Shown: positions 16,298 through 33,320 of the stretch, piece after piece
Position numbering within the stretch: position 1 is the first letter of the stretch
Layout: each line of letters opens with the position of its first letter
Assembly (NCBI GenBank): GCA_964481465.1
Contig: CAYZTL010000003.1
Coordinates: forward strand, 65,717-129,716
DNA from: an uncultured Anaerolineales bacterium
GTDB lineage: Bacteria > Chloroflexota > Anaerolineae > Anaerolineales > UBA11858
Direction of reading: 5' to 3'
Length of the DNA stretch: 64,000 nucleotides
Translations under genes and position numbers: made by a program
The notes under the pieces: model-generated
Databases searched by the model: none
What the model was told of the DNA's origin: nothing
The model's input: the letters and a program-made list of their open reading frames with translations, nothing else

Positions 16298-16506
16298 ATG
16301 TTCATCCTTGGAAACAGATATTTGCAGGTCGTATCCCAAATAGGGGCTATTGCCCATGGGATAAACGCCAATCTAAAATGTGATTATACTGCACATCTCA
16401 GGGAACCACAGGATAGAGCAAGAAGGACCGGGTGTTTAATTCCCCCCTCAAACCGGACCCTTCGGGGTTCGCCCTTCACCGCCCCAGTCCAGAAATGGAT
16501 CTCCGT

Positions 16507-17308: not shown

Positions 17309-18769
17309 TCAGAGCAAGCCGACCCGGTCGTTGAAATCTTCGATCAGCTCGTCCATCTCGTCGATTTGCTGGTGGTACCCATCCCAATACGACCCATCTT
17401 CCCATTGGGCATTGAGCTCTTCCAGCTCTTTGCCCTGCTGTTCGATCCAGGTGTAGTATTTCAAGTTGTGGATCCGCCGCCGGGCTTCATGGTTCAGGTC
17501 CAGCATGTAATTGGGAGTCACCCCTTCCAGATAGCGGGCATGGTGGCGAGCCGCGTCCATTTCCGTGTATTGCCCGACCTCCTCATGCATCTCTCTCAAA
17601 CGGCTTTCGTAGAGTTCCATGGAATCCGTGAAGACAGTCAGGACAATGTCATTTTCGCCCAGCTCGTAGTATTTGGCGTATTTGATGCACATGAGCACAT
17701 TGGCAATGCTGGAGAAGCCCAGCAAATCCAACTGGCAGACAAGGTCTTCGGGTACCCCCTGGTCAATGAGATACTGGCGCCCTGCCGGCTCATTGAAGAG
17801 GCGGGCCAGGTTGACCACCGCATTATCATCAATGGCGATCACCGTATCCGTGTTCTTGACATTATGGATCCAGGGCACGTGTTTGTCGCCGATGCCCTCG
17901 ATGCGGTGGGCGCCGAACCCATTCTCAAGCAAGGTTGGACACTGCAGCGCTTCGCCAACCGCGATCCTGCTGGTGGGGAAGATTTCTTTCATGTAGTCCC
18001 CGCAGCCCAGCGTGCCTGAAGACCCGGAGGTCAAAGCCACGCCGTGGTAGTTGCCATCCGGTCCCATCTCCTGTTCTAAAACCTCTTCCATGGCATGACC
18101 GGTGACGTTGTAGTGCCAGAGGTGATTTCCGAATTCGTCAAACTGGTTGAAGACGAAAACGTTCTCCCGTTCCTCCCGCAGCTCCCAGACTTTGTCATAG
18201 ATCTCCTTGACGTTGGACTCCGAACCCGGGGTGGCGATCACTTCCCCAGCCACTTTGGCCAGCCAGTCAAAGCGCTCCTGGCTCATCCCTTCGGGGAGGA
18301 TGGCGATAGAATCGCAGGCCAGCAAGGCCGCATCGTACGCCCCGCCCCGGCAGTAATTCCCGGTGGAGGGCCAGACCGCTTCGTGAAATGTGGGATCGAA
18401 CTGTCCGGTGACCAGACGGGGGACCAGGCATCCAAAGGTCGCGCCTACTTTGTGCGACCCGGTCGGAAACCATTTCCCTACCAGGGCGATGATCCGCGCA
18501 TCCACGCCCGTGAAGCTATGGGGCAGTTCCAGATAATTGACACCGTTAAAGCCGCCCCCCTTCTCCACAGGCTCATTTTTCCAGGTGATGCGGAATAAAT
18601 TCCGCGGGGTGATGTCCCATAAGCCAATCCCTTTCAGTTCCTCTTTGATCGCATCGGGGATCAGTTCCGGGTTCCTCATCTGCGCATAGGTGGGAATGAT
18701 GATGTCCCGCTCCCGGGCGCGTTTTACGGTTCGCTTTCGCTGTTCTTCGTTAATGGTCAGATCAATCAT
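17309..18769 (-). CDS. PLP-dependent enzyme, tryptophan-synthase-beta/cysteine-synthase (fold type II) superfamily, long form
   Basis: 486 aa. FPTGSHKVGATFGCL holds the putative PLP lysine, and WPSTGNYCRGGA is also present. I do not recognise the specific activity. Confidence 0.75.
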   Translation of the reverse strand: MIDLTINEEQRKRTVKRARERDIIIPTYAQMRNPELIPDAIKEELKGIGLWDITPRNLFRITWKNEPVEKGGGFNGVNYLELPHSFTGVDARIIALVGKWFPTGSHKVGATFGCLVPRLVTGQFDPTFHEAVWPSTGNYCRGGAYDAALLACDSIAILPEGMSQERFDWLAKVAGEVIATPGSESNVKEIYDKVWELREERENVFVFNQFDEFGNHLWHYNVTGHAMEEVLEQEMGPDGNYHGVALTSGSSGTLGCGDYMKEIFPTSRIAVGEALQCPTLLENGFGAHRIEGIGDKHVPWIHNVKNTDTVIAIDDNAVVNLARLFNEPAGRQYLIDQGVPEDLVCQLDLLGFSSIANVLMCIKYAKYYELGENDIVLTVFTDSMELYESRLREMHEEVGQYTEMDAARHHARYLEGVTPNYMLDLNHEARRRIHNLKYYTWIEQQGKELEELNAQWEDGSYWDGYHQQIDEMDELIEDFNDRVGLL

Positions 18770-18831: not shown

Positions 18832-19761
18832 TTAATCGTCTTCCGGCGCTTCCCGTACGATGTAGAGCGGTCTCCCTTTGGCTTCATCATAGATGCGGCC
18901 CACGTATTCCCCCAAAATCCCCAAAAAGATCAACTGCACCCCACCCAGGAATAAAACCACAATCAGGGTCAGGGCCTGGCCAGATAAAGCGCTTGAACCG
19001 GCCAAACGGAAAGCAATCAGGAGTAACAGGGCCAGGAGCCCCACTCCCGCCACCGCAAATCCGAGCACCATCGCCAGCTGGAGGGGGAAATAGGAAAAGC
19101 CAGTGATGGCATCGTTGGCCAGTTTCATCATCTTGCGCAAAGGATACTTGGTTTCCCCTGCGTAGCGTTCTTCACGCCTGTACTCCACGCCGGTTTGTTT
19201 GAAGCCAACCCAGGCCGACATCCCCCGCAAGAAGCGGTGGCGTTCGCGCATTTGTTTCATCACCGAGACCACTTTCCGGTCCAGTAAGCGGAAATCGCCG
19301 GTGTCCAGGGGGATATCGACATCCGTGATCCGCTGGATGAAGCGGTAAAAAGCCGCTGCAGTTGCCAGTTTAAACCAACTTTCACCCTCCCGTTTCTCGC
19401 GGACGGCGTAAACCACCTCAAACCCTTCCTTCCATTTCTCAATCAAGTCTAAGATCACCTCAGGGGGGTCCTGCAAGTCCGCGTCGATCACCACTACGGC
19501 ATCCCCCCGGCTGTAATCCAATCCCGCCGTGACCGCGATCTGATGTCCGAAATTGCGAGCGAAGATCACCGGTCGAACGCGGTCATCGCCTTCGGCAAGC
19601 TCGCGGATGCGTTCCACGGATCCATCCGTGGACCCATCATCCACCATCACGAACTCCCAACTCTCCCCTGTGCTTTCCATGACCTCACTCACCCGGCGGT
19701 AAAGGACGGGGAGGTTTTCCATTTCGTTATAAATAGGAGCGATAATCGAGTATGTGGGCAT
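18832..19761 (-). CDS. family 2 glycosyltransferase (polyprenyl-phosphate glycosyltransferase-like, two C-terminal TM helices)
   Basis: 309 aa. [15 protein letters not shown]...[12 protein letters not shown]...[11 protein letters not shown] is the GtrB/ArnC/DPM1-like pattern. Confidence 0.85.
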
Positions 19762-19803: not shown

Positions 19804-21042
19804 CTAACGTAGAAGCTTCTTGACCTCTTCCAAATCGGGTTTGATCACCGGCGCTTTGCCCGCTGCATCCATCGCGGCCTCAACATCTTTCAACCCGCTT
19901 CCCGTGTTCAAGACCAAGATCGGGTCCCGGGCCTCAACCAGGCCCTCCTGGAGGGCTTTTTTCAATCCCGCATAGGAGGTCGCTCCAGCGGGTTCGGCGA
20001 AGATACCCACCTCACCCAAATCCGCCACCGCTCGCAGAATGGCCTGGTCTCTTACAGCCACATAAGCGCCGTCCGTCTCTGTAGCAGCCCGCAAGGCTCG
20101 CAGGCCGTCACTGGGCAGATTCACGGAGATGCTGTCCGCCAGGGTATCCGCAGAGACAGGTTTGATCTCTTCCGTCCCCGCCTGGAAAGCGTTGGCGATC
20201 GCCGCAGATCCCGTGGACTGGCAGCCGAAGATGCGCGGCATCTGCTCAAGCATCCCGATCTTTGCCAGATCTTTAAATCCTTTGTGCAATCCGGAGATAA
20301 TGTTCCCATCTCCGACGGAGATGAAAACGCACAGCGGACGCTGAAAATCGTTCTCTTCGATGAGCATTTCCCAAATTTCAAAAGCTGCGGTCTTCTTTCC
20401 CTCCGCGGTGAAGGGGTTGTAGCCCGTATTCCGGTTATACCAGCCGAATTCCCGGGTCGCCTCCAGCGATAACTGGTAGGCAGCGTCATAATTGTCATCC
20501 ACCAGGATAACCTGCGCACCGTAAATCAACAGCTGGGCGATTTTCGCCGGCGGTGCGTTCTTGGGAGCGAAGATCACGGACCGCTGGCCTACCGCTGCAG
20601 CCATACCCGCCAAAGCCGCCCCGGCGTTTCCCGTCGAGGCGGTGACGATCACTTCCGCGCCAATTTCCCGGGCCCGAGCGATCAAAAGCGCGCTGGCCCG
20701 GTCTTTAAAGGAAGCGGTCGGGTTGCTGCTCTCATCTTTGACCCACAGCTGGGGCAGCCCCAGCTCCGCTTTCAACACGGGGGGGGAATAGGTCGGGGTC
20801 CAGCCCGCCGCCCGGAGGGGCGTGCCCTCCCCAATCCATTCCGCAACCGGCAGGAGGGGGAGATAACGCCATAAGGATTCCTCTGCCCTTAAAATAAGCT
20901 CATTTTTAGGCTTCTCTTTTACAGCTGCATAGTCCAGAAGGACATCCAAAATCCCCTCATCTTGGGGACAGGTATAGGTCACCTCATCCGGGCCGTATTC
21001 CGTGCCGCATACCGAACACCGATAACCGACAAATTTTTGCAT
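19804..21042 (-). CDS. thrC: threonine synthase-family PLP enzyme with N-terminal zinc ribbon
   Basis: 412 aa. The N-terminus has CSVCGTEY...YTCP, and SNPTASFKDRAS carries the PLP-lysine motif. Its ATG lies 1 nt after the stop of the ABC ATPase gene. Confidence 0.8.
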   Translation of the reverse strand: MQKFVGYRCSVCGTEYGPDEVTYTCPQDEGILDVLLDYAAVKEKPKNELILRAEESLWRYLPLLPVAEWIGEGTPLRAAGWTPTYSPPVLKAELGLPQLWVKDESSNPTASFKDRASALLIARAREIGAEVIVTASTGNAGAALAGMAAAVGQRSVIFAPKNAPPAKIAQLLIYGAQVILVDDNYDAAYQLSLEATREFGWYNRNTGYNPFTAEGKKTAAFEIWEMLIEENDFQRPLCVFISVGDGNIISGLHKGFKDLAKIGMLEQMPRIFGCQSTGSAAIANAFQAGTEEIKPVSADTLADSISVNLPSDGLRALRAATETDGAYVAVRDQAILRAVADLGEVGIFAEPAGATSYAGLKKALQEGLVEARDPILVLNTGSGLKDVEAAMDAAGKAPVIKPDLEEVKKLLR

Positions 21043-21043
21043 C

Positions 21044-22600
21044 CTATACCTTTTCCTCCTCTTTCACACCAGCCATCATCAAGCCCAGTTTTTCGGGGGT
21101 GGCTTCATCGCCGGGGACGATGCCCATGATCTGGCCTTCGTAGATCACGGCAATCCGATCCGCCAAAGCTAAGATCTCATCCAGGTCCTCGGAAATGAGC
21201 AGGATGGCTGTGCCTTGCTTTCTTTGGGATAACAGTTGCTCGCGGACGTACTCCATAGCACCCACATCCAACCCGCGAGTGGGCTGGGACGCCACGATCA
21301 CCCGGGGTTCCCGGGAAAGTTCCCGGGCCACGACCACTTTCTGAATGTTCCCTCCAGAGAGGCTTTTTGCCAGGGTCTCCCGCGAAGGGGTTTTAATCTG
21401 GTAGTTTTCAATCAACCGGTCGCTGTTTTCCCTGATCGCCTTCAGATTTAAAAAACCAGATTGGGAGAAGGGTTTCTTATGGTGTTCGCGGAGGATCAAG
21501 TTCTCCGCCACCGTAAACTCCTTGATCATCCCATCCCGCATGCGTTCCTCCGGGATGTAGGCAAGTTTACGATCCGTGCGTGCAATGGGTGGATAATGGG
21601 TGATATTCTCTCCATCCAGGAAAATCTTCCCCCTCTCCACCTCCCTTAACCCGGTAATCACCTCGGCCAACTCAAGCTGACCGTTCCCGGAAACCCCAGC
21701 TACACCCAGGATTTCACCCGACCTGACTGCCAAATCAACCCCTCGCAGCCCGGGCGTGCCGCGGTCGCTCTTACAGGATACGCCATCAACCTCTAAACGG
21801 ACCTCGCCGGGTTGGATCTCTTCAATATCGGGACGGAAATCAACCTCACGCCCCACCATCCACCTCGCTAAATCAGATTTGGTCGCATCTACGGTTTGAT
21901 ACGTCCCGACTTTGCGCCCCCCCCGCAAGACCGTCACCCGATCACTGATGTCGATCACCTCATGCAATTTATGTGAGATAAAAATGAGTGCATGTCCATC
22001 TTCTGCCATCTCGTGGATGATCTGGAACAACTCATCCACTTCCTGAGGCGTTAAAACCGCCGTGGGCTCATCGAGGATCAGCAGCGCGGCGCCCCGGTAA
22101 AGGGCTTTCATGATCTCCACCCGCTGCCGCTGTCCAACGGATAACTGCCAAATATACGCGTCCGGATCCATTTCCAGACCATATAAACCCGCCAGCTCCA
22201 GAATGCGCTCGGAGACGCGATCCAGATCCGTCAATGGTTCCCGGGAGGATTCCAGGCCCAAGGCCACATTTTCAGCCACCGTCAAGGTCTCTACCAGCAT
22301 GAAGTGCTGGTGGATCATCCCGATCCCATTCTTGATGGCATCGGTGGGGGATTGGATCTTGACTTGTTTCCCATTCAGGAAGATTTGCCCCTCATCAGCC
22401 TGGTACAAGCCGTAAAGGATATTCATCAAGGTGCTTTTACCAGCCCCATTTTCTCCCAGCAGGGCATGGATTTCCCCGGATCTGACTTCAAAATCGACGC
22501 GGTCATTGGCTAAAACCCCTGGAAAGCGTTTAGTTACCGACCGCATTTCCATGTGGTCAATTCTGACTTCGCCGGTGGGAAGCAAATTATCTTCAGCCAT
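21044..22600 (-). CDS. ABC transporter ATP-binding protein, duplicated ATPase (nucleoside/sugar CUT2 type)
   Basis: 518 aa. Two ABC cassettes are present (GENGAGKST, LSVGQRQRVEI, LLILDEPT; second signature LSGGNIQKVVVAR). Confidence 0.92.
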   Translation of the reverse strand: MAEDNLLPTGEVRIDHMEMRSVTKRFPGVLANDRVDFEVRSGEIHALLGENGAGKSTLMNILYGLYQADEGQIFLNGKQVKIQSPTDAIKNGIGMIHQHFMLVETLTVAENVALGLESSREPLTDLDRVSERILELAGLYGLEMDPDAYIWQLSVGQRQRVEIMKALYRGAALLILDEPTAVLTPQEVDELFQIIHEMAEDGHALIFISHKLHEVIDISDRVTVLRGGRKVGTYQTVDATKSDLARWMVGREVDFRPDIEEIQPGEVRLEVDGVSCKSDRGTPGLRGVDLAVRSGEILGVAGVSGNGQLELAEVITGLREVERGKIFLDGENITHYPPIARTDRKLAYIPEERMRDGMIKEFTVAENLILREHHKKPFSQSGFLNLKAIRENSDRLIENYQIKTPSRETLAKSLSGGNIQKVVVARELSREPRVIVASQPTRGLDVGAMEYVREQLLSQRKQGTAILLISEDLDEILALADRIAVIYEGQIMGIVPGDEATPEKLGLMMAGVKEEEKV

Positions 22601-22631
22601 CTCTCGTCCTTCCTATCCTATGGTACAGGAT

Positions 22632-22670
22632 GGGGGGGAAGGTCGGGGGAACGACCCCCTCGACCTTCCC
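22632..22670 (-). promoter_or_regulatory. GC-rich intercistronic stem-loop between the binding-protein and ATPase genes
   Basis: GGGAAGGTCGGGGG (22636-22649) pairs with CCCCCTCGACCTTCCC (22655-22670), with one bulge. No U-run follows, so it looks like an mRNA stabiliser or attenuator rather than a full terminator. Confidence 0.6.
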
Positions 22671-22687
22671 ATACTTCCCTTATCCAT

Positions 22688-23689
22688 CTACTCTACATCA
22701 ACCGTTATTTCACCGTCAATGATCCCTTGGATGGTCTCATCTGCCAGGGATTTCACGTCCTCCGGCAAATCAAAGTCGGGGTTGAATTCGATCTCCAAAC
22801 CGTCATTCGCCAAGGTGATGGCATAGGCTTTTCCGCCTAAGGTCCCGTTTTGGATGCTGTCAATCATATCCCGGAGGATGACCTCCCAGTGATACACCTG
22901 ACTGGCAACCACGATGCTGGGGGCTAGTTCCGTCTGATTGGCCTGGGTGCCAAACCAGAGGACATCGTTCTCCTCTGCGACGCCGATCGCCCCGGTCACC
23001 ATCTGTGCGGTCCCGGTCAGCACATCCGCGCCTGCGGAAACGTGGGTATTGGCAGCCTCAGATGCCAATGCCACATCCGAGAAGGAACCGATATAGTTCA
23101 CATTGACCCGCACATCCGGGCTGTTAGCTTTCGCTCCCGCTTTGAAACCATCGATGTACAGTTTGGCATCTCCGGTCTCAATGGGACCGACAACACCCAA
23201 GATATTGCTTTCGGAAAGCGTGGCCGCCAAGACGCCGTTGACATACCCGCCCTCTTCCGCCCGAGCCTCATAGGCATAGACGTTGTCAATGCCCTGATCC
23301 TTGAAGGTGTCCACCGTCGTCCCCCAGGCAAAGGCCGTGTCGGGGAAGTCAGGCGCAATTTCCTGTATCGACGACCCATATTGGGACCCATGGCCGATGA
23401 CCAGGTCATAACCCTGGGAGGCGTAGTCCCGGATGGCGGCGGCAGCGTCATCGACGACGAACATGTTCTCTGAATAGTCCAAGGTCATCGCTTCTTCGCC
23501 GCCCATTTCCTCCTGGATGACCATCAACGCGTCATACATGCTCTGGCTGAAAGCCAGGTCATTGATAGGGCTGGGCATGACCAGGGCGACTTTAAACACG
23601 TCATCCTCACCTCCACCAACTCCACCGCCACAGGATGCAAGGACAATGGTCAAGATCAAAAACAAAACGGTTAAACTTTTCTTCCTCAT
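22688..23689 (-). CDS. BMP-family (Med/PnrA-like) ABC substrate-binding lipoprotein, probable nucleoside binding
   Basis: 333 aa. Lipobox LASCGG. FKVALVMPSPINDLAFSQ...GHGSQYG is typical of basic membrane protein (BMP) family binding proteins. Confidence 0.88.
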   Translation of the reverse strand: MRKKSLTVLFLILTIVLASCGGGVGGGEDDVFKVALVMPSPINDLAFSQSMYDALMVIQEEMGGEEAMTLDYSENMFVVDDAAAAIRDYASQGYDLVIGHGSQYGSSIQEIAPDFPDTAFAWGTTVDTFKDQGIDNVYAYEARAEEGGYVNGVLAATLSESNILGVVGPIETGDAKLYIDGFKAGAKANSPDVRVNVNYIGSFSDVALASEAANTHVSAGADVLTGTAQMVTGAIGVAEENDVLWFGTQANQTELAPSIVVASQVYHWEVILRDMIDSIQNGTLGGKAYAITLANDGLEIEFNPDFDLPEDVKSLADETIQGIIDGEITVDVE

Positions 23690-23792
23690 TTCACGCTCCT
23701 TTCACTAAAGCGACTACGGGTAACTTGCCTGCGAAAAATGATTTTTAGACGAGAGGAAAACACCTCCTTTTTTCATAGATCTCCACTGATGA

Positions 23793-24725
23793 TCATTCTT
23801 CCCGTTCAAAAGGCTTTGTTAGAGCGGATGGTGAGCGGACACCCGAAGCTGAGGCCATCAAAACCAAGATGGTCAACACATAGGGCATCATCACAGCGAT
23901 GTCGGAGGGGATGGGGATGCCTAAAACCTGGATCCACAACTGCAGGGAGTTGACCATGCTGAAGATCAACGCCCCTAACATCACACCCACCGGGCGCCAG
24001 CTGCCAAAGTACACCAATGCCACGGCAATAAATCCCAAACCGCTGGTCATGTTCTGTTGAAACACGTTCAACAAAGCGATGGATTGGGAAGCCCCGGCGA
24101 TTCCGGACATGGCACCACCCAGGATCACAGTGAAATACCGGATCCCCGCCACGCTCACCCCTAATGAATCCGCTGCTTCGGGGTTTTCACCAACCGACCT
24201 GATCTTCAATCCCAACGTGGTCTTATTAATCACAAACCAGCTGATGGGGACGAGGGCAAAAGCGATATACACCAAAATGTTGTGTTGAAAGAAAATCTTG
24301 CCCAATACAGGGAGATCACTCAGGTAGGGGATGTCTATTTTGGGGAACCCTTTCACGGTTTCCACCGTCCCTAAGATCTTCTGGAACAGCAAATCGCTCA
24401 GCCCCAGACCAAAAAGGTAAAACCCGATCCCGCTGATCCCCTGCTCCGCCTGGAGATTCACGGTCACAAATGCCATCGCCAACCCCATAATGGCGCCGAC
24501 AATCAAGGCTGCCAGCATGCCCAACCACAGGTTTCCCGTGGTGAATGCCACATAGAAGGCAGCGAAGGCCCCCAAAAGCATTTGCCCTTCCACGCCCAGA
24601 TTAAGGACCCCGCTGCGCTGGCTGAACGTTTCTCCAATCGCGGCATATAAATATGGCGTGGCCAAACGGATCCCAGAGGCGAGTATACCGAACACGACCG
24701 TCGCTGAGAACAAATCCGAGATCAT
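23793..24725 (-). CDS. ABC transporter permease (BMP/nucleoside system, second permease)
   Basis: 310 aa, multi-TM. It overlaps the upstream permease gene by 4 nt. Confidence 0.88.
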   Translation of the reverse strand: MISDLFSATVVFGILASGIRLATPYLYAAIGETFSQRSGVLNLGVEGQMLLGAFAAFYVAFTTGNLWLGMLAALIVGAIMGLAMAFVTVNLQAEQGISGIGFYLFGLGLSDLLFQKILGTVETVKGFPKIDIPYLSDLPVLGKIFFQHNILVYIAFALVPISWFVINKTTLGLKIRSVGENPEAADSLGVSVAGIRYFTVILGGAMSGIAGASQSIALLNVFQQNMTSGLGFIAVALVYFGSWRPVGVMLGALIFSMVNSLQLWIQVLGIPIPSDIAVMMPYVLTILVLMASASGVRSPSALTKPFEREE

Positions 24726-25876
24726 TCCTCCACCTCCTGGCTTCCATCATCCGGAGAATCCTCCTCGCCTGAGGTTGTTTCTCTCATCTTTTGCGCCAAC
24801 CTCCGCCTTTGCCGCTTTTGACGCAAGATTTCGCTGCTGACCACAAAAACCACCACCAGACCATTGAGGGCAGTGATCAAAGCGGAAGGGATTTGCATCA
24901 CCCGCTGCATTTTGTTAGCGCCCACCAGTAATCCTCCAAATAAGATGGAAGCCGGAATGGTGCCCAGGGGATGGAGCTGACCAAATAAGGCAGCCACTAT
25001 ACCGTTGAAGCCCGCACTCCCCGTGAATCCAGAAGCAGAGCCATCCGTGATCATCCGGTAATTGACCCCGTATACCTTGGCAACCCCTGCGAGACCGGCA
25101 AAAGCGCCGCTCAACAAGAGCGCCAGAACCACGTTTCGTTTCACCTTGATCCCGGCATATCTGGCAGCATGGGGACTTTGACCTACAGCCCGGATGCGAT
25201 AACCCACCACCGTTCGCCAGAGGAGGATATACACCAAAACAGCCAGGACCACAGCGATCAAGGCTCCCAGATGCAAACGCGTGGGCACCCAGCGGGGCAG
25301 GTGGAAGGCGTCCTGTAAACGGGCGGTCTGGGGGATCTTGGAGGCCAGTTCCGCCTGGGCGGGGTCAATCATCGGTCCCCGGAGTAGAAAATTCATCAAT
25401 TGCACAGCAATGGCATTCATCATCACCGTGCTGAGGATCTCATTGACGTTGAAATAGGCCTTTAAGGCACCTGGAATCCCTCCCCAGATCGCGCCGCCAA
25501 TGAAACCACCCAAGAACGCCATAATAATCACTAACCAGCCAGGAAAGTTGGTCAAGTTCAGTCCCACCAAAGTCCCCAAGATGGCACCGACGATCATCTG
25601 GCCCTCGCCGCCGATGTTGATCACATCCCCGCGAAAGGAGATGCAGATCCCGAGCCCGACCAGCAGTAACGGAGTCGCTTTCACCAGTGTCTCGGCTACC
25701 GAATTCCAGCTCCCGAATGCGCCGTTGACCAGCGCACCATACGCTCTAAAGGGATTGACGTTGAAAAACAAGAGCATGATTGCCCCCAACGCGAACGCTC
25801 CCAAGGCGGCAACCATGGGCAGGGAAGTATCAATCACCTGTGAGACCCATTCGGCTTTGACCCACTTTTTCATCAT
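24722..25876 (-). CDS. ABC transporter permease (BMP/nucleoside system, first permease)
   Basis: 384 aa, multi-TM, with INIGGEGQM motifs typical of branched-chain/sugar-type permeases. It has a charged C-terminal tail. Confidence 0.88.
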   Translation of the reverse strand: MMKKWVKAEWVSQVIDTSLPMVAALGAFALGAIMLLFFNVNPFRAYGALVNGAFGSWNSVAETLVKATPLLLVGLGICISFRGDVINIGGEGQMIVGAILGTLVGLNLTNFPGWLVIIMAFLGGFIGGAIWGGIPGALKAYFNVNEILSTVMMNAIAVQLMNFLLRGPMIDPAQAELASKIPQTARLQDAFHLPRWVPTRLHLGALIAVVLAVLVYILLWRTVVGYRIRAVGQSPHAARYAGIKVKRNVVLALLLSGAFAGLAGVAKVYGVNYRMITDGSASGFTGSAGFNGIVAALFGQLHPLGTIPASILFGGLLVGANKMQRVMQIPSALITALNGLVVVFVVSSEILRQKRQRRRLAQKMRETTSGEEDSPDDGSQEVEE

Positions 25877-26189: not shown

Positions 26190-27146
26190 TTATGGGACAA
26201 TGTGCGTACCGGTCTCCCCTTTCAAGGCCCGTCCGATGTTTTCCGGGTTGGTGACGATGGCCTTTTTACCGCCGCTCTCCAGAAAGCGGACGATGGCTTT
26301 GATCTTCGGTTCCATGGAACCTTTGGCGAAGTGCGTGCCTTCCTCCAGATACCGCTTCGCCTCAGCGACGGTCATGGTGTCGATCCATTCTTGATCAGGC
26401 TTCCCGAAGTTTAAGGCCACTTTTTCCACTGCAGTGGAAATCAAATACAAATCGGCGTTGATCTCATTGGCCAACAAACCGGAAGCGAAATCTTTGTCGA
26501 TCACCGCCGCGGTCCCCCGCACTTCGTCCCCATCGCGGATGACCGGGATTCCGCCGCCACCCACGGTGATCGTGATCGTCCCCATGTCGATCAAGGCTTT
26601 CACCGCCTCCAACTCCATGATCTCCTGGGGTAAAGGGGAAGGGACTACCCGCCGCCAACCCCGCCCGGCATCCTCGACCACATCCCAGCCGTCTTCTCTT
26701 TGCCTGCGCTGGGCTTCGTCCTCCTCCATGAAACTGCCAATGGGTTTGGAAGGCTCCTGGAATGCAGGGTCATCCGGATCCACCCGAACCTGGGTGATCA
26801 CGGTGGCTGCTCCCTTGTCAATGCCCCGTTTCCGCAGATCATTCTGGATGTTTTGCTGCAGGGCGTAGCCAATCGCGCCCTGGCTGTCTGCGCCGCACAC
26901 ATCGAGGGGCAGTTCATGCATCCCTTCCACACGAGCGGCGATCTCCGAGCGGCGGAGGATGAACCCCACCTGGGGCCCATTTCCGTGCCCAATGGCGATG
27001 TCCCAGCCCTGCTCAATCATGTCCACCAGGTGTTTGGCAGTCTCCTTTGCCGCCTGGTACTGATCTTCTACGGTCTGGTGATCCTTGCTCTTGATCAATG
27101 AGTTGCCGCCGATGGCGACAACGGCTACTTTTCGTTCCTCACTCAT
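26190..27146 (-). CDS. arcC: carbamate kinase
   Basis: 318 aa. VVAIGGNSL...IGHGNGPQVG and length match carbamate kinase. Confidence 0.92.
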   Translation of the reverse strand: MSEERKVAVVAIGGNSLIKSKDHQTVEDQYQAAKETAKHLVDMIEQGWDIAIGHGNGPQVGFILRRSEIAARVEGMHELPLDVCGADSQGAIGYALQQNIQNDLRKRGIDKGAATVITQVRVDPDDPAFQEPSKPIGSFMEEDEAQRRQREDGWDVVEDAGRGWRRVVPSPLPQEIMELEAVKALIDMGTITITVGGGGIPVIRDGDEVRGTAAVIDKDFASGLLANEINADLYLISTAVEKVALNFGKPDQEWIDTMTVAEAKRYLEEGTHFAKGSMEPKIKAIVRFLESGGKKAIVTNPENIGRALKGETGTHIVP

Positions 27147-27154
27147 ACCTTCTC

Positions 27155-28135
27155 CTAACGCATGCTCAAAGCCATGACGGCTTTTTGTGCATGCAATCGA
27201 TTCTCAGCCTGGTCGTAGACTACGGACTGCGGTCCATCCATCACTTCACTGGTCACCTCCACATCCCGATCCGCCGGGAGGGGGTGCATGTAAATGGCAT
27301 CCTTGTCAGCTAGCGCCATCTTGCGGGCGTCCGTGATCCAATCCTTGTACTGATCCTGAATGCGTTTGCCTTCCTCCTGGTCCCGGGTCGTCAGCAGCGG
27401 ACCCCAAGATTTGGCATAGACGATATCCGCCCCTTCAAAACCCTCTTCCATGTCATGGACGACTTCGAACTGGGTGTCGTAATTCTCTGCCTGTTCCCGC
27501 GCTTGTTCCATGATCTCCGGCATGAGCTCAAACTCCGGGGGATGGGATAAGGTGACGTCCAATCCAAAGCGGGGCATCTGCAAGATCAAGGACTGGGGGA
27601 CGGAGATCGGTTTCAGGTACGAAGAAGCATAGGCCCAGGAAACGACGATCTTCTTTCCCCGCAAATCCTTCCCTTTCTTTTCCTGGATGGTCATCAAATC
27701 CGCCAGGCATTGATGGGGGTGGTAAAACTCATCCTGCATGTTGAGCACGGGGACGCGGGACGCGGAGGCGACGTTATTGAGATAGTTATTGCCAATCCCC
27801 CAATCCACATGGCGGATGGCAATGCCATCGAAATAGCGCCCCAATATCTCTCCCAGCTCTTTTTCTGTATCTCCATGGGAGACCTGGGTGGTGCGGCTCT
27901 CGATGAAGGCCGCATGCCCGCCTAACTGCGCCATCCCGGCTTCAAAGGATGACCTCGTCCGGGTGCTGGAAAAGAAGAACAGCATCCCCAGGGTCTTATC
28001 CCGCAAATAGGCGTGGGGCTGGCCCAAAGCCCGCTTCTTTTTCAAGTCCCAGGCCACATCCAGGACCGTTTCCACTTCTTCTTTGCTGAAATCAAGGTCG
28101 CTGATCAGATCTCGATTTCTCAAATCCGTAATCAT
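27155..28135 (-). CDS. carbamoyltransferase of the AOTCase/SOTCase/YgeW-like (knotted) group, substrate unknown
   Basis: 326 aa. It has SSTRTRSSFE (carbamoyl-P site), HPHQCLADL, VVSWAY...P..VPQS, YAKSWGPL and MHPLPADRDVEVTSEVMDGPQSVV. These parallel B. fragilis/Xanthomonas ArgF' motifs recalled from memory, not classical OTC (DxxxSMG/HCLP). Confidence 0.8.
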   Translation of the reverse strand: MITDLRNRDLISDLDFSKEEVETVLDVAWDLKKKRALGQPHAYLRDKTLGMLFFFSSTRTRSSFEAGMAQLGGHAAFIESRTTQVSHGDTEKELGEILGRYFDGIAIRHVDWGIGNNYLNNVASASRVPVLNMQDEFYHPHQCLADLMTIQEKKGKDLRGKKIVVSWAYASSYLKPISVPQSLILQMPRFGLDVTLSHPPEFELMPEIMEQAREQAENYDTQFEVVHDMEEGFEGADIVYAKSWGPLLTTRDQEEGKRIQDQYKDWITDARKMALADKDAIYMHPLPADRDVEVTSEVMDGPQSVVYDQAENRLHAQKAVMALSMR

Positions 28136-28237
28136 CTTTCAAACTCCTTCTATAAAATTCTAGGGTATCATGGGGGCAGAACTGTGGGGGATCCCCCCGC
28201 TCTGTCCCCCATTTGTATGATCGGTTTCCAAACCACC

Positions 28238-29191
28238 TCACTCTTTAGCGCCTAACACCAAAGCCAGAAGCGCCATGCGCATGACCACACCGTTGAAGCC
28301 CTCCTCCCAATAGCGTGACCAGCGGGTGTGGTCCACGTCCGGGGGAATCTCATCCATGCGGGGCAGGGAGTGGAGCAGGATGGCGTCAGATTTGGCCTTG
28401 GTTTCCAGCAACTCTTTGGTGATTTTGAATTGGGGGGGAGTCTGGGCCACTTCACCCTTCCGTTCATCGCGGGATTTGGTGTAATCCGGCTGGACCACCG
28501 GCTCGACCAGGATGACATCCGCCTCTCCAATTACTTCTCGCACATCATCGCCTTCCGTGAAGTCCAGGCTGCCGGCTTTGAAGTCTTCCCTGTACTCATC
28601 CGGGAGGGACATGTCGTCCGGGGAAATCAAGGTCAGGGGGCAGTCAAACTGGGTCAGGGCATGGCCCAGGGAATGCATGGTGCGCATGCGCATGTCGCCC
28701 ACAGCGACCCAATTCAAGCCATCGATGGTCCCTTTTTCCTTCAAGACGGTGTAGAGATCGGTCAGAATCTGCGTGGGATGTTCCCCCCACCCGTCCCCAC
28801 CGTTGATCACCGGCACGCTGACCCATTTGGCCGCTTCATGAGGCGCGCCTTTCTGGAAGTGGCGGGTGACGATCACATCCCCATAATGCTCCAACATCTT
28901 GAACGTGTCTTTGATGGACTCCTGGTAGAAGTCGCCCGCGCGGGTCACGCTGGCATCCGCAAAACCGGTCACCTTCCCCCCCAAGCGCAGCATAGCGGAC
29001 TCATGCGCCAATCGGGTTCGGGTGGAGGGCTGATAGAAAGCCGTCACCAGCGTCTTTTCTTTGAGCAGGTCGACATTTTTCCGATTGTGCGCGATGGGCG
29101 CCAGTTCGTCAGCGACCTCAAAGACCCGCAGAAATTCGCGGCGCTCAAAATCCTTCAAAGATAAAATGTCTCGTCCTAAAAAACTTCGCAT
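28238..29191 (-). CDS. aspartate carbamoyltransferase-like paralogue (non-canonical second-substrate site)
   Basis: 317 aa. STRTRLAHESAMLRLGG, HPTQILTDL, LHSLPRMDEI and NGVVMRMALLALVLG align with PyrB. The conserved TR(V/I)Q segment reads EPVVQ instead. Confidence 0.8.
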   Translation of the reverse strand: MRSFLGRDILSLKDFERREFLRVFEVADELAPIAHNRKNVDLLKEKTLVTAFYQPSTRTRLAHESAMLRLGGKVTGFADASVTRAGDFYQESIKDTFKMLEHYGDVIVTRHFQKGAPHEAAKWVSVPVINGGDGWGEHPTQILTDLYTVLKEKGTIDGLNWVAVGDMRMRTMHSLGHALTQFDCPLTLISPDDMSLPDEYREDFKAGSLDFTEGDDVREVIGEADVILVEPVVQPDYTKSRDERKGEVAQTPPQFKITKELLETKAKSDAILLHSLPRMDEIPPDVDHTRWSRYWEEGFNGVVMRMALLALVLGAKE

Positions 29192-29224: not shown

Positions 29225-30001
29225 CTATAGGTTTATGTCTTCCTGTCCCTCACCTCTTGCCCACGAAGATGAACCTGAAATCTCGTTCCCTACATGGCGC
29301 ACGATATGAAAACGGAAGTAGCCCGGCAAGAAATAGCTGAATGAATAATCCACCACCCGTCCCCTGGTGGAGTACAACTGGGAGCGGAACATCAAGATGG
29401 GTGCGTGGCGTTGGATATCCAGCGCGCTGGCAATTTCTGGCGAAGCGCCGGTGGCGTTGATATCCGTGCGCGAACTTGCCAGGGGAGGTTGATTCTTTTC
29501 TAATAACAGATCCAAAATGGAGCCCGTGAAGTCAGACGGGATTTCATCCGCTGTCAAGACATCAGTGGGTAATATGTCAACCAAATAGGCAACCGGCCGG
29601 TTCTCCGCCATGATGACCCTTGACACGCGGACGATGTCTACATCCAAATCCAAATCCAATGCTTCCGCTTCCTCTTCGCTGGGAAAACCCCGGACAACTT
29701 CCAGTTCCCCCATTGACACGGAAAGGCCAATCCTCTCCGCCAACGTGTCCAAACTGACCAGATGTTCCAACCCGCTCTCGAAAACCTCGGTGGGGTGGAT
29801 CACAAACGTACCCACGCCCTGTTTTCTGCGCAGTAAACCCCTCGTTTCAAAAGTCCTCATCACTTCCCGAAGGGTAGCCCGGGACACACCAAGCTGATCA
29901 GCAAGCTTGGGTTCCGAGGGCAGCCGTTCCCCGGTTTGCATGTCGGCGATGATCGCGCTTAATTTTTCCCGGACTGTCTCTGAAACTCCCTGGGTACCCA
30001 T
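29225..30001 (-). CDS. GntR-family transcriptional regulator, HutC subfamily (winged HTH + UTRA domain)
   Basis: 258 aa. LPSEPKLADQLGVSRATLREVMRTFETRGLLRRKQGVGTFV is the GntR HTH signature. The length fits a UTRA effector domain. Confidence 0.9.
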   Translation of the reverse strand: MGTQGVSETVREKLSAIIADMQTGERLPSEPKLADQLGVSRATLREVMRTFETRGLLRRKQGVGTFVIHPTEVFESGLEHLVSLDTLAERIGLSVSMGELEVVRGFPSEEEAEALDLDLDVDIVRVSRVIMAENRPVAYLVDILPTDVLTADEIPSDFTGSILDLLLEKNQPPLASSRTDINATGASPEIASALDIQRHAPILMFRSQLYSTRGRVVDYSFSYFLPGYFRFHIVRHVGNEISGSSSWARGEGQEDINL

Positions 30002-30003
30002 GG

Positions 30004-31806
30004 CTATACTTCTTCAACTACGGGGATAAGTTCAAATTTATCAGCATCCACCAATCCCAAATCTGAAATCCGCAAGGCGGGAATGACCACCAAAGCCAAA
30101 AGGCTGAGCTGCATATTGGGATTCTTAATCGTGCACCCGCACTCCCGGAACCCTTCTAACACCGACGCGGCTTCTTCCGCCACGATCTCAGCCCGCTTAT
30201 CGGACATCAAACCAGCGATCGGCAAGGGGACTTTCCCGATCACTTCCCCCCCTTTGACCACTACCTGCCCCCCCTGCATATCCACCAACTCATTGGCGGC
30301 CTGGGCCATTTGGGCTTCATCCGTCCCCACCACGATCATGTGATGTGAGTCGTGAGCAACCGTACTGGCAATGGCGCAATCCGGGCCAAGTTCAAAGCCC
30401 TGCACCAAACCCACTTGCACACCTCCGGTGGCATTGTGCCGCTCTACCAAGGCAATTTTCGCTAAATCGCGCGCCAAATCCACCTTGACTTCGCCGCCTT
30501 CCGCCTCTACGGGAATCCGCAAGTGCTTCGTGGGCGCCTGCCCTTCGATGACGCCGATGACATGGGCTTCCAGTTCCGCACCGGACAGCTCTTCCGGGAC
30601 CTGCAAGCGGAAATCATCCGCTTTCAGAGGGCGTTTGACGTTGACGGAATGGGTCGCCCAGCGGGGATACGCCACCTCCGGCATATCGACCTCCCAGCCC
30701 CCTTTTTCGGCAATCACCTGGCCTTTGGCGATCACCACTTCCGCGCGGAAATCATCCAAATCCGGAACCAGGAGGATGTCTGCATAGCGCCCGGGGGCAA
30801 TTTGTCCCATATCCCGCGCCACCCCGAAGTGCTCCGCGGTGTTCAAGGTCGCCATTTGGATCACAGTTAGAGGATCGACGCCCAAACCAATAGTATGGCG
30901 GACCACGCGGTCCATATGTCCCTCGTTGACCAGAGTCTCAGAATGGGTGTCATCCGTGCAGAGCAGGAAATGCCGGGAATCCAATCCCTCTTCGGTGACC
31001 GCTCTGATCTGGGCTTCGACATCCAGCCAGCCGGATCCGTAACGGAGCATGGCTTTCATTCCCTGCCGGACACGCGCCAGCGCGTCTTCCTTGCGGGTCC
31101 CCTCGTGATCGTCCTCAGGGCCGCCCGCTGCGTAGCCATGAAAAGGCATTCCCAGATCGGGGGACGCATAATGCCCCCCTACCACTTTCCCTGCACTCCT
31201 GGTGGCTGCCATTTCATCGTGCATTTTCTGGTCATTGTTAAACACGCCGGGGAAATTCATCATTTCCCCCAGCCCGATAATCCGTTCCCAGGACATGGCT
31301 TCCGTGACTTCTTCCGGACCAATGCTGGACCCCGGTGTCTCCAAGCCCGGGGCGGAGGGGACACAGGAGGGCACCTGCACCCAGACGTGGATGGGCTGCT
31401 TTTCGGCTTCTTCAGCCATCAAACGTACGCCCTTCAACCCAAAGACATTGGCGATCTCATGGGGATCGACGAACATGCCCGTCGTCCCATGGGGAGCTAC
31501 GGCGCGGACGAATTCGGTGATGGTGACCATGCCGGATTCAATGTGCATGTGGGCGTCCAATAAGCCGGGCACTAGATAACAGCCCTCAGCCCGGATGACC
31601 TCCGTCCCGTCGCCAATGGTGTGAGAAGCGTCTTCTCCCACGAAAGCGATCCGCTCCCCTACCACAGCGATATCGATGTCAGGGATGATCTCTCCCGACT
31701 GGACGTTCACCCACTGCCCGCCCTTTATCACCACATTGGCGGGCGCTCTCCCCATCGCCACATCCACTAACTTCTGCGTTCGTTCACGAATGGTTTTCAT
31801 GTTCAT
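30004..31806 (-). CDS. ade: adenine deaminase-family amidohydrolase
   Basis: The track ORF runs to 31851. ATG 31806 follows AGGAG. GLLDAHMHIESGMVT...GTTGMFVDPHEIANVFG is the COG1001 adenine deaminase pattern. About 600 aa. Confidence 0.85.
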   Translation of the reverse strand: MNMKTIRERTQKLVDVAMGRAPANVVIKGGQWVNVQSGEIIPDIDIAVVGERIAFVGEDASHTIGDGTEVIRAEGCYLVPGLLDAHMHIESGMVTITEFVRAVAPHGTTGMFVDPHEIANVFGLKGVRLMAEEAEKQPIHVWVQVPSCVPSAPGLETPGSSIGPEEVTEAMSWERIIGLGEMMNFPGVFNNDQKMHDEMAATRSAGKVVGGHYASPDLGMPFHGYAAGGPEDDHEGTRKEDALARVRQGMKAMLRYGSGWLDVEAQIRAVTEEGLDSRHFLLCTDDTHSETLVNEGHMDRVVRHTIGLGVDPLTVIQMATLNTAEHFGVARDMGQIAPGRYADILLVPDLDDFRAEVVIAKGQVIAEKGGWEVDMPEVAYPRWATHSVNVKRPLKADDFRLQVPEELSGAELEAHVIGVIEGQAPTKHLRIPVEAEGGEVKVDLARDLAKIALVERHNATGGVQVGLVQGFELGPDCAIASTVAHDSHHMIVVGTDEAQMAQAANELVDMQGGQVVVKGGEVIGKVPLPIAGLMSDKRAEIVAEEAASVLEGFRECGCTIKNPNMQLSLLALVVIPALRISDLGLVDADKFELIPVVEEV

Positions 31807-31857
31807 GGGGAACACTCCTGAGAAGATTATTATCGAATAAAACCTTTCCAAAACAAT

Positions 31858-33240
31858 TCAGCGAACCAGTTTCCTTGCCAATTGGTTGTGGGTTTCCATG
31901 AGCTGGTTGACATCTGCGGTAACCAGTTCTCCTTCCTTGACGACAAATTTCCCGCCCACCACGTTGTAAGCAACAGCGCTTGGAGCGCAAAAAGGCACGG
32001 CAGCGACCGGATCATGCAGGGCGCCAGCATATCCTAACTGCTGTAAATCGAGGGCGATGAAATCCCCCACTTTCCCCTTTTCCAACGATCCGATGTCTGG
32101 ACGACCTAACACCGCTGCACCGCCCCGCGTACCCATCTCCAGCGCCTGGCGGGCAGACATGATCGGCAGGGCATTTTCTCCCGAGCGAGAAGCCCCCAAC
32201 ATCCCCGCTCTCAAACGAGCCAAAAGCATGGCCCGCCGGACCTCTTCGATCATATGCGAACTGTCATTGCTGGCTGAGCCGTCGACACCGACGCCCACAT
32301 GGATCCCGGCCTTCAACATATCCAGGATGGGCGCTGCACCGGACGCCAGGCGCATGTTTGAACCGGGGCAGTGAGCGACGCCGCACTCGTGCTTTGCATA
32401 CTTGGCCAATTCCTGATCATTGACATGCACCGAATGGGCAAACCAGACATCCGACCCCATCCAATCCACCTCTTCCATGTAAGCAACGGGACGTTTCCCA
32501 AATTGCTCCAAGCAGAAATCAACTTCATCTTCCGTCTCTGCCAGATGGGTATGCAGCCGGACACCGTACTCCCGGGCCAAGGCAGCGCTTTCCCGCATCA
32601 AATCTCCCGTGACGCTGAACGGCGAGCAGGGAGCGAGGGCAATTTGCAGGAAGGATCCCGGGTCGGGGTCATGGTATTCCTCAATCACCCGCTGGGAATC
32701 GCGCAGGATCTCGTCTTCATCCTCCACCACACTATCTGGGGGAAGCCCCCCCTTGCTCTCCCCTAAGCTCATCGAACCCCGGGAAGCATGCAAACGCAAG
32801 CCGATCTCTCTGGCTGCCTGGATTTCGTCATCCAATCGGGAGCCGTTGGGAAAGAGATAGAGGTGATCTAAGGCTGTCGTGCATCCGGAAAGGGCCAATT
32901 CAGCCAAGGCGGTCTTCGTGGACACCCGGATTTCCTCAGGGCCCATTCTGGCCCAAATGGGATAGAGCGTCTTCAGCCAGTGGAACAGGTTTACATCCTG
33001 CGCCTCCGGAACCACCCTGGTCAAGGTTTGATAAAAGTGGTGGTGCGTGTTCACCAGCCCAGGGAGGACGATATGCCCTGAACCATCCAGCACCTCGTCT
33101 GCCTGGTCTGGCAAGGAAGCGGTGGGTCCAACCGCTTCAATGAATCCGTCTTTAATGAAAATACCACCGCCCTTAATCTCTCGACGGTGGTCATCCATGG
33201 TCACCAATATTTCCGCGTTTTTAACCAATAATGTGCTCAT
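31858..33240 (-). CDS. COG0402 amidohydrolase (8-oxoguanine/guanine/SsnA-type deaminase-like)
   Basis: 460 aa. LPGLVNTHHHFYQTLTR and HLAET...E are typical of the 8-oxoguanine deaminase/chlorohydrolase subgroup. Confidence 0.85.
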   Translation of the reverse strand: MSTLLVKNAEILVTMDDHRREIKGGGIFIKDGFIEAVGPTASLPDQADEVLDGSGHIVLPGLVNTHHHFYQTLTRVVPEAQDVNLFHWLKTLYPIWARMGPEEIRVSTKTALAELALSGCTTALDHLYLFPNGSRLDDEIQAAREIGLRLHASRGSMSLGESKGGLPPDSVVEDEDEILRDSQRVIEEYHDPDPGSFLQIALAPCSPFSVTGDLMRESAALAREYGVRLHTHLAETEDEVDFCLEQFGKRPVAYMEEVDWMGSDVWFAHSVHVNDQELAKYAKHECGVAHCPGSNMRLASGAAPILDMLKAGIHVGVGVDGSASNDSSHMIEEVRRAMLLARLRAGMLGASRSGENALPIMSARQALEMGTRGGAAVLGRPDIGSLEKGKVGDFIALDLQQLGYAGALHDPVAAVPFCAPSAVAYNVVGGKFVVKEGELVTADVNQLMETHNQLARKLVR

Positions 33241-33291: not shown

Positions 33292-33320
33292 AGTTTAACA
33301 AAAAGGGGGCAATTTGTCAA
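33292..33320 (-). promoter_or_regulatory. sigma70-type promoter of the deaminase-transcarbamylase operon
   Basis: On the minus strand: TTGACA (33320-33315)-N17-TAAACT (33297-33292), about 50 nt upstream of ATG 33240. Confidence 0.55.

Follow-up and report, generated by a model that had tools for sequence, protein, structure and literature searches.

A pseudo-aspartate carbamoyltransferase gene of Anaerolineae and its probable place in the reductive urate pathway

In the present study, we analysed a transcarbamylase gene, here called pATC (for pseudo-aspartate carbamoyltransferase), in a stretch of 64,000 nucleotides from an uncultured Anaerolineales bacterium (contig CAYZTL010000003.1, positions 65,717 to 129,716); the whole stretch is called the window. 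On the reverse strand of the window the genes follow one another in the order 8-oxoguanine-deaminase-like gene, adenine-deaminase (ade) family gene, GntR-type regulator, pATC, a second transcarbamylase (TC2), carbamate kinase (CK), BMP-type importer, threonine-synthase-like (ThrC-like) gene, family 2 glycosyltransferase (GT2), CysK-like gene and hydantoinase (Table 1). The first-pass annotation, made from the sequence alone, had described pATC as a paralogue of aspartate carbamoyltransferase (ATCase) without the conserved Arg-x-Gln segment that binds aspartate. The best explanation for the locus is that pATC is a catabolic transcarbamylase of the pseudo-ATCase type, with its place in the lower part of the reductive (2,8-dioxopurine) urate pathway of Anaerolineae.

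Among the solved structures, the best HMMER relative of pATC is the ATCase of Pyrococcus abyssi bound to N-(phosphonacetyl)-L-aspartate (PALA; 1ML4, 240.9 bits). The protein passes TIGR00670 narrowly (253.7 bits, cut-off 236.95) and stays under the cut-off of NF002032 (221.1 against 263). Because it scores just over the former cut-off, its orthologues are named 'aspartate carbamoyltransferase' in public records. Our AlphaFold2 model has a mean predicted local distance difference test (pLDDT) score of 94.1 and a predicted template modelling (TM) score of 0.92, and its confidence drops only at the 80s and 240s loops, with the lowest values (pLDDT 67-71) in the 240s segment, as expected of a mobile loop. 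In a Foldseek search with this model the PALA-bound ATCases came first (TM 0.88-0.91, with 1ML4 at the top). As modelled, the fold is that of an ATCase catalytic chain; the model supports the fold and the mobile loops, and the geometry of the pocket lies beyond it.

The active site was read from an HMMER alignment to 1ML4 and from MAFFT alignments with PyrB of the same genome, with 57 sequences and with 97 sequences. The carbamoyl-phosphate site is kept in pATC, in which STRTR (S56-R60), R110 (E. coli R105) and HPTQ (H138-Q141) are all invariant. R170 (E. coli R167), the LPR motif (L276-R278) and the C-terminal helix are also kept, and the HPLP motif reads HSLP. The motif that separates ATCases from the other family members is RxQxER (Shi et al. 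2015), formed by Arg229, Gln231, Glu233 and Arg234, and it is absent from pATC. The HMMER alignment pairs V-T-R-I-Q-K-E-R-F of 1ML4 with V-E-P-V-V-Q-P-D-Y of pATC, and the MAFFT alignments agree or shift this pairing by a gap; T-R-x-Q-x-E-R-F of ATCase corresponds to E230-P231-V232-V233-Q234-P235-D236-Y237. No arginine stands at the 229 position of pATC in any of the four alignments. The closest one, R241, lies 10 residues further, and only in the MAFFT alignment with the own PyrB is it paired, with R234 and not with R229. The 80s loop carries an insertion of two residues (G86 and D87).

Relative to the E. coli enzyme, Glu50 is replaced by Gln54, Ser80 by Arg84, Lys84 by Tyr89 (past the two inserted residues), Thr228 by Glu230, Arg229 by Pro231, Gln231 by Val233, Glu233 by Pro235, Arg234 by Asp236 and Pro266 by Ser275, and one residue is deleted ahead of the Arg167 equivalent. 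Residue fixation was counted in 21 aligned pATC orthologues and 16 true ATCases. The substitutions are fixed in 21/21 orthologues, and the true ATCases have the canonical residue in at least 15/16, and in 16/16 at most positions. In the 80s loop, R84, G86, D87 and Y89 are fixed in all 21 orthologues, where all 16 canonical ATCases have serine, gap, gap and lysine; the R, E and R of RxQxER are likewise canonical in 16/16. Since the changes are fixed throughout the orthologues, they represent a conserved design and not decay. Both loops contain conserved acidic residues (acidic or polar E230, D87 and E91). Compared with PyrB of P. abyssi (1ML4) and E. coli (1D09), to which it is 34-42% identical, pATC has the same fold and carbamoyl-phosphate site and shares Arg105, Arg167 and Leu267, but it lacks Glu50, Lys84, Arg229, Gln231, Glu233, Arg234 and Pro266. 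Hence, what the first-pass annotation had read from the translation holds on alignment: the carbamoyl-phosphate motifs and the PyrB-type C-terminal helix are present, VEPVVQPDY stands in place of the Arg-x-Gln segment after gap adjustment, and the Lys84 loop is altered and lengthened. The changes at Glu50 and Pro266 and the deletion before Arg167 go beyond it.

Table 1. Features of the window around pATC
Feature	Position in window	Strand	Basis or remark
8-oxoguanine-deaminase-like amidohydrolase, first gene of the operon	31858..33240	-	NF006055 680 bits, cut-off 532
Best sigma-70-like promoter match ahead of the operon	33292..33320	-	TTGACA-17-TAAACT, 10/12; consensus match only
Adenine-deaminase-family amidohydrolase	30004..31851	-	TIGR01178 507.2 bits, cut-off 472.5
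GntR/HutC-type regulator with UTRA domain, directly upstream of pATC	29225..30001	-	Pfam GntR + UTRA
pATC, pseudo-ATCase gene (the transcarbamylase studied)	28238..29191	-	317 aa; Pfam OTCace_N + OTCace
80s-loop segment T83-E91 (TRAGDFYQE), in place of S-x-K-K-G-E with Lys84	28919..28945	-	Translation
240s-loop segment E230-R244, EPVVQPDYTKSRDER, in place of ATCase RxQxER	28460..28504	-	Translation and alignments; (nearly) invariant in the clade
TC2, transcarbamylase like N-acetylornithine carbamoyltransferase (AOTCase) and YgeW	27155..28135	-	326 aa; HPLP, AKSWG; partner of pATC
Carbamate kinase (CK)	26190..27146	-	TIGR00746 391.9 bits, cut-off 358.25
BMP/PnrA-type ABC importer (two permeases, binding protein, ATPase)	21044..25876	-	Pfam BPD_transp_2 x2, Bmp, ABC_tran
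Threonine-synthase-like (ThrC-like) pyridoxal-phosphate (PLP) enzyme	19804..21042	-	PALP 241.8 bits
GT2 glycosyltransferase (PgfS/ArnC-like)	18832-19761	-	Between ThrC-like and CysK-like genes
Long CysK-like fold-type-II PLP enzyme (486 aa)	17309..18769	-	PALP
D-hydantoinase/dihydropyrimidinase (HyuA-type family)	14876..16357	-	TIGR02033 511.9 bits, cut-off 393.25

The source genome (3.19 Mb in 31 contigs, 93.8% complete) contains five transcarbamylase genes, namely a canonical pyrB, pATC, TC2 and two ordinary ornithine carbamoyltransferases (OTCases; contigs C1 and C2). The canonical pyrB lies on another contig (G000:C4:177636-178535; TIGR00670, 368.9 bits) and overlaps a gene matching the bifunctional UMP synthase (pyrF/pyrE fusion). 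pATC, by comparison, stands outside any pyrimidine-gene context, and it is not the aspartate carbamoyltransferase with which this cell makes pyrimidines. The first-pass annotation had pointed to catabolic surroundings with no pyrI or pyrC, and the neighbours are in fact a GntR regulator and the second transcarbamylase in a purine-catabolic operon with CK. Its suggestion of a second substrate other than aspartate is thus strengthened by the lost residues, by this operon and by the separate pyrB, for which it had advised a search. When RNA runs covering 26190-29191 were sought, none was listed, which counts neither for nor against. Elsewhere in the genome (G000:C1:24001-42000), a possible second ureido-cleaving set was seen, with an arcB-type OTCase, a distant YgeY-family M20 protein, a EutB-like PLP dehydratase and two unassigned open reading frames (ORFs) of 384 and 447 aa.

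The reductive urate pathway has been set out in two studies of 2025 (PMC12507026; bioRxiv 10.1101/2025.04.24.650524). According to these studies, XdhD forms 2,8-dioxopurine, which YgfK (or UacX) then reduces, and 2,3-diureidopropionate arises when HyuA opens the hydantoin. One of its ureido groups is phosphorolysed by YgeW, with ATP obtained via YqeA, and the other is hydrolysed by YgeY; diaminopropionate is finally turned into pyruvate by YgeX. The studies differ as to the ureido group that is cut by YgeW, Li et al reporting 2-ureido cleavage first (PMC12507026), and a commentary lists the order of cleavage as open (PMC12990295). Li et al also described a variant from Chloroflexota in which the reductase is luciferase-like and depends on F420 (PMC12507026). 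A cluster matching this variant is present on the contig of pATC, about 57 kb upstream. It contains SsnA (488.9 bits, cut-off 455.5, above both curated cut-offs), two xanthine-dehydrogenase (XDH)-type molybdoenzymes with FAD/FeS subunits, XdhC, a luciferase-like enzyme, CofC, CofD, CofE and an F420:NADP oxidoreductase. No transcarbamylase, CK, hydantoinase or PLP lyase was present among those of its ORFs that were scanned, and these missing types are what the cluster in the window supplies. The M20 peptidase encoded divergently beside this SsnA (G000:C3:37931-39307; L098:5931-7307) was considered as YgeY and rejected, being a PRK08201-type dipeptidase (511.9 bits).

Overall, the genome has SsnA, XDH-type enzymes with a reductase candidate, CK and a HyuA-type hydantoinase from the gene set of the pathway. 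YgeW and YgeX orthologues above the cut-off were not found in it (best scores 179.8 of 500 and 87 of 276, respectively), nor was an orthologue of the YgeY found in such clusters. From the synteny, TC2, pATC and the ThrC-like or CysK-like PLP enzymes are candidate substitutes for YgeW, YgeY and YgeX. Seven other genomes, which belong to at least three families, have pATC, TC2, CK and the ThrC-like/CysK-like genes contiguous with SsnA, which lies 6-14 kb from pATC. GntR occurs in three of these loci, YgfK in three (in one of them with 921.9 bits against a TIGR03315 cut-off of 835.3), DHO_dh in one, XDH subunits in one and F420 genes in four.

The relation of pATC to YgeY was studied in a sample of 251 genomes of the class, with TC2 orthologues defined by at least 65% identity and cluster-type YgeY by at least 49% identity to the protein of genome G078; the genome labels for the co-occurrence counts were transcribed by hand. 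TC2 orthologues occur in 120/251 genomes, more than twice the number with pATC, and 48 of the 49 pATC genomes have TC2. The 120 TC2 genomes divide into 66 with YgeY only, 30 with pATC only, 18 with both and 6 with neither (odds ratio 0.055, Fisher p 3e-10). When the family labels were checked by hand, two or more of these states were found together in at least nine families, and near-complete genomes represent them (two with pATC only, two with YgeY only and one with both). The pATC-negative TC2 loci that were inspected encode an M20 hydrolase just upstream of TC2, or just past its GntR gene, in 7/7 cases. All seven proteins are 69-77% identical to the G078 protein, and the two that were scanned are true YgeY (TIGR03526, 467-477 bits, cut-off 321.5). 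One such locus, in a member of the taxonomic order to which the genome studied here belongs, reads oxoG-deaminase, ade, GntR, YgeY, TC2 and CK, which is the gene order of the window with YgeY replacing pATC. A strict one-for-one displacement of YgeY by pATC was rejected, as 18 sampled genomes keep both.

Like YgeY of E. coli and C. sporogenes, pATC occupies the cluster slot next to a YgeW-like transcarbamylase. Almost all genomes with TC2 carry YgeY or pATC, and the proposed step would be the same, from the second ureido group to 2,3-diaminopropionate. In fold and chemistry, however, the two proteins are unrelated. The metallo-hydrolase YgeY releases CO2 and NH3 in an irreversible reaction, whereas pATC is a transcarbamylase, which would release carbamoyl phosphate reversibly and feed CK. 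On these grounds we consider it probable that pATC is a phosphorolytic alternative to YgeY, removing the second ureido group of 2,3-diureidopropionate. In this scheme, XDH-type enzymes, an F420- or YgfK-type reductase, SsnA and hydantoinase would convert urate to 2,3-diureidopropionate with its two ureido groups. TC2, as the YgeW-like enzyme, would phosphorolyse one of them and pATC would take the other, a step for which E. coli uses hydrolysis by YgeY. Both cleavages would yield carbamoyl phosphate and then ATP via the adjacent CK. As both ureido groups would give carbamoyl phosphate, genomes with pATC only could gain two ATP per urate and not one.

The pocket offers some indication of the substrate. 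Arg167 and Arg105, which would form the alpha-carboxylate site, are kept in pATC, and the residues of the beta-carboxylate site (Arg229, Gln231, Lys84 and Arg234) are Pro, Val, Tyr and Asp. Since the first site is kept and the second replaced, the likeliest substrate would be an alpha-ureido acid whose side chain is neutral or cationic. Judged from these residues, the likeliest candidates are 3-amino-2-ureidopropanoate or the 2-ureido group of diureidopropionate, and the conserved acidic loop residues would suit the beta-ammonium group of the former. In its most specific form, for which we judge the chances to be somewhat below even, the proposal is that pATC is an N-alpha-carbamoyl-2,3-diaminopropionate:phosphate carbamoyltransferase, an undescribed activity that has repeatedly displaced YgeY in Anaerolineae and yields two ATP per urate. 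With pATC on an alpha-ureido-acid (ATCase) scaffold beside a YgeW-like partner, the YgeW-type enzymes would then be expected to cut the 3-ureido group.

Several observations weigh against a role of pATC in the YgeY step. The intermediates of the urate pathway have been reported as R, or D-configured (bioRxiv 10.1101/2025.04.24.650524), whereas the aspartate bound by ATCase is the L form. As the 2025 papers disagree on the ureido group cut by YgeW, the group left for pATC is also uncertain. The genomes counted are related, so the Fisher p overstates the significance of the alternation. Besides the 18 genomes with both genes, YgeY, pATC and TC2 stand in a row in 17/80 pATC loci; YgeY and pATC are therefore not strictly exclusive and could differ in substrate. 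The genome studied here also encodes a distant member of the YgeY family on contig C1, two genes away from an arcB-type OTCase (NF003286, 570 bits). It scores 343 bits with NF009555 (cut-off 321) and about 222.5-222.9 with TIGR03526, below the cut-off of 321.5, and is ~30% identical to the cluster YgeY. Furthermore, the module and SsnA are 57 kb apart in this genome, and SsnA above the cut-off is found in 185/251 genomes of the class and in 45/49 of those with pATC. Because SsnA is so common in the class, its co-occurrence with pATC is weak evidence, and the argument is carried by the synteny and by the alternation with YgeY.

Among the other explanations, the most probable is that pATC acts first, taking the 2-ureido group off 2,3-diureidopropionate, after which TC2 or YgeY removes the 3-ureido group; the pathway would be unchanged, but the order of the steps and the substrate of pATC would differ. 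Genomes with YgeY, pATC and TC2 would fit three enzymes of overlapping but non-identical substrates, the kept alpha-carboxylate site fits either substrate, and 2-ureido cleavage first is what Li et al report (PMC12507026). We nevertheless regard this order as unlikely, though well ahead of the alternatives below, as on its own it leaves unexplained why nearly every TC2 genome has YgeY or pATC and why there is a negative association between them. A free amine would also be a better match than a neutral ureido side chain for the acidic residues conserved in the pocket.

Each of the alternatives that follow conflicts with a feature that we tested. The only characterised pseudo-ATCase, Rxyl_2847 of Rubrobacter xylanophilus, is encoded next to a CK in a purine-catabolic cluster (PMC4016543), and allantoate and diureidopropionate are structurally similar (PMC12990295), so that pATC might be a ureidoglycine/allantoate carbamoyltransferase (UGTCase) of the same kind in an allantoin-type route. 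This is improbable in view of its signature, HSLP and V-Q-P against HPLA and AIA/AIS/SIA. The window hydantoinase scores 246 against the allantoinase cut-off of 357.85, and lies above that for D-hydantoinase; the neighbouring ORFs that were scanned gave no match to uricase or 5-hydroxyisourate hydrolase, and the cluster partners SsnA, YgfK and the F420 enzymes belong to the reductive route. Slightly less probable again is a carbamoyltransferase for beta-alanine (or another beta-ureido acid) in reductive pyrimidine degradation, which would use N-carbamoyl-beta-alanine from the nearby dihydropyrimidinase. A dihydropyrimidinase-family gene is indeed syntenic, one related cluster contains PydA-like DHO_dh genes, and such an enzyme was proposed, as unproven, by Shi et al. 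2015. However, the carboxylate of N-carbamoyl-beta-alanine corresponds to the beta-carboxylate of aspartate, whose site is lost in pATC while Arg167 is kept, and the markers of the cluster (SsnA, YgfK, XDH and adenine deaminase) are purine-specific. The least probable view takes pATC as a second or catabolic ATCase isozyme, or as an inactive pseudoenzyme. An isozyme would agree with the score just above the TIGR00670 cut-off and with the name given to the orthologues in databases, but the whole of RxQxER and Lys84 are missing in all alignments, NF002032 is below its cut-off and a canonical pyrB is present. A pseudoenzyme is at odds with the retention of all carbamoyl-phosphate-site residues and with orthologues 62-96% identical across hundreds of species.

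Pseudo-ATCases were named earlier and divided into three subgroups by their residues at the HPLP and RxQ positions (Barba et al. 2013, BMC Syst Biol 7:99, PMC4016543). pATC is a pseudo-ATCase by that definition, as it belongs to the ATCase branch, keeps STRT and HPTQ, has lost RxQ, has an altered HPLP and occurs alongside a genuine ATCase. Like the described members, it is closest to the P. abyssi ATCase and annotated as ATCase. The class has been known since 2013, hence pATC is not a new kind of protein. Compared by motif and context only, its HSLP and V-Q-P match the HSLP and VxP of subgroup 3, but the Na+ symporter, asparaginase and marine-bacteria context of that subgroup was not seen around pATC. 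With subgroup 2, in which the gene of Nocardioides sp. JS614 lies beside a YgeW homologue, xdhABC and hyuA (PMC4016543), pATC shares a context of YgeW-like transcarbamylase, XDH genes and hydantoinase, but not the motif GX[SC]. In the tree made here, its clade is almost wholly from Anaerolineae and forms a branch of its own. Rxyl_2847, the only assayed member, cleaves allantoate with phosphate or arsenate (PMC4016543), that is, it phosphorolyses an alpha-ureido acid and is paired with CK in purine catabolism; its subgroup signature is another one, its context is oxidative (uricase/allantoinase) and its substrate is one carbon shorter. YgeW (YTCase, 3Q98) with the CK YqeA represents the same pathway and logic, a catabolic transcarbamylase and a CK that together use one ureido group of 2,3-diureidopropionate to make ATP. 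YgeW, however, is knotted, of the OTCase branch and ~396 aa long, whereas pATC is unknotted, of the ATCase branch and 317 aa long, and the YgeW counterpart in the operon is TC2, far below the YgeW cut-offs. No report of an ATCase-like enzyme tied to the reductive urate pathway was found in the literature searched; the pATC clade, its proposed place in this pathway and its apparent exchange with YgeY were likewise not found there.

With regard to distribution, at least 585 stretches from species-representative genomes encode relatives of pATC, of which the best 80 were used for the synteny counts. These are 77-96% identical and almost all from Anaerolineae metagenome-assembled genomes. Among them, TC2 follows pATC in 71/80, CK follows TC2 in 67/80 and GntR is upstream in 56/80, the exceptions to the order GntR-pATC-TC2-CK being mostly contig ends. 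Compact loci read pATC, TC2, CK, ThrC-like, GT2, CysK-like and hydantoinase. In the class sample, 49/251 genomes have a pATC orthologue (47 at 62-81% identity and two contig-end fragments), and the matches are bimodal, with canonical PyrB at 38-44%. A search of 1.84 billion 50%-identity representatives gave only two full-length members of the clade (68% and 65% identity), followed by other RxQ-less proteins at 41-52%, most of them with a T-R-A-G-D-type 80s loop and many with the Glu50-to-Gln change. In a quick maximum-likelihood IQ-TREE tree with Shimodaira-Hasegawa-like approximate likelihood ratio test (SH-aLRT) support, the Anaerolineae pATC clade forms its own branch (SH-aLRT 99), nested in a supported group of solely RxQ-less proteins. 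Neither TC2 nor CK was found beside the nearest relatives from outside Anaerolineae in six loci (P0127, P0129, P0132, P0140, P0143 and P0190), and therefore no function can be transferred from them.

The gene contexts of the RxQ-less relatives (L120/L121, L122, L123/L124 and the P0127 contig) differ widely. They include an overlapping creatininase gene with serine hydroxymethyltransferase, an Asp/Glu-racemase-like gene with DHO_dh and an aminotransferase, phosphoenolpyruvate mutase, and an isopropylmalate-synthase-like gene with an aminotransferase. The pseudo-ATCases thus look like a functionally diverse, largely unexplored radiation. Two loci labelled Heimdallarchaeota (JABCTC010000003.1) and Eisenbacteria (CAWANH010000028.1) carry pATC-TC2-CK with 77-86% identity to the Anaerolineae genes, probably through mis-binning or recent transfer. 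When the window was compared with loci L100-L106, identity was 63-77% for pATC and 65-78% for TC2, well above SsnA (52-63%) and GntR (44%). Either constraint on these two genes is unusually strong, or they have been passed laterally between members of the class.

TC2 is a knotted-type transcarbamylase whose sequence matches in the PDB are OTCase, AOTCase and YgeW (3Q98). It is under every NCBIfam cut-off (AOTCase 265.8/288, OTCase 262.8/306, YgeW 194.7/453 and 184.3/500). The ThrC-like gene directly follows CK in compact loci and occurs in SsnA-containing clusters, and the CysK-like gene is syntenic beside SsnA in L100-L105 and L113-L117. Both are syntenic with TC2 and SsnA in clusters with pATC and without it. 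The ThrC-like enzyme is a candidate for the step that removes diaminopropionate, and it or the CysK-like enzyme may substitute for diaminopropionate ammonia-lyase, the genome being without YgeX above the cut-off. The hydantoinase gene follows the CysK-like gene in four loci (L041, L061, L062 and L111). The GT2 gene is kept between the ThrC-like and CysK-like genes in nine loci (L032, L033, L035, L039, L041, L061, L062, L105 and L111). An alpha/beta hydrolase (Pfam Hydrolase_4, 237-265 bits) was seen between the CysK-like gene and SsnA/YgfK in three loci (L100:7443-8339, L103:5754-6737 and L104:8560-9438). The matching place in the window has no Hydrolase_4 homologue and holds a 192-aa ORF with no Pfam match (16507-17085, reverse strand).

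Hundreds of Anaerolineae genomes carry pATC under the name 'aspartate carbamoyltransferase', which is almost certainly incorrect and conceals a step in the anaerobic fermentation of purines. If the proposed role is true, pATC supplies the missing YgeY step of genomes with SsnA and without YgeY, and it adds a new substrate specificity to the transcarbamylase family. It would also represent the swap of a hydrolase for a phosphorylase at one step, doubling the substrate-level ATP from urate. Furthermore, pATC provides an independent approach to which of the two ureido groups in 2,3-diureidopropionate goes first, a question flagged as unresolved (PMC12990295). It is suggested that this energy-conserving variant may interest engineers of urate-degrading probiotics.

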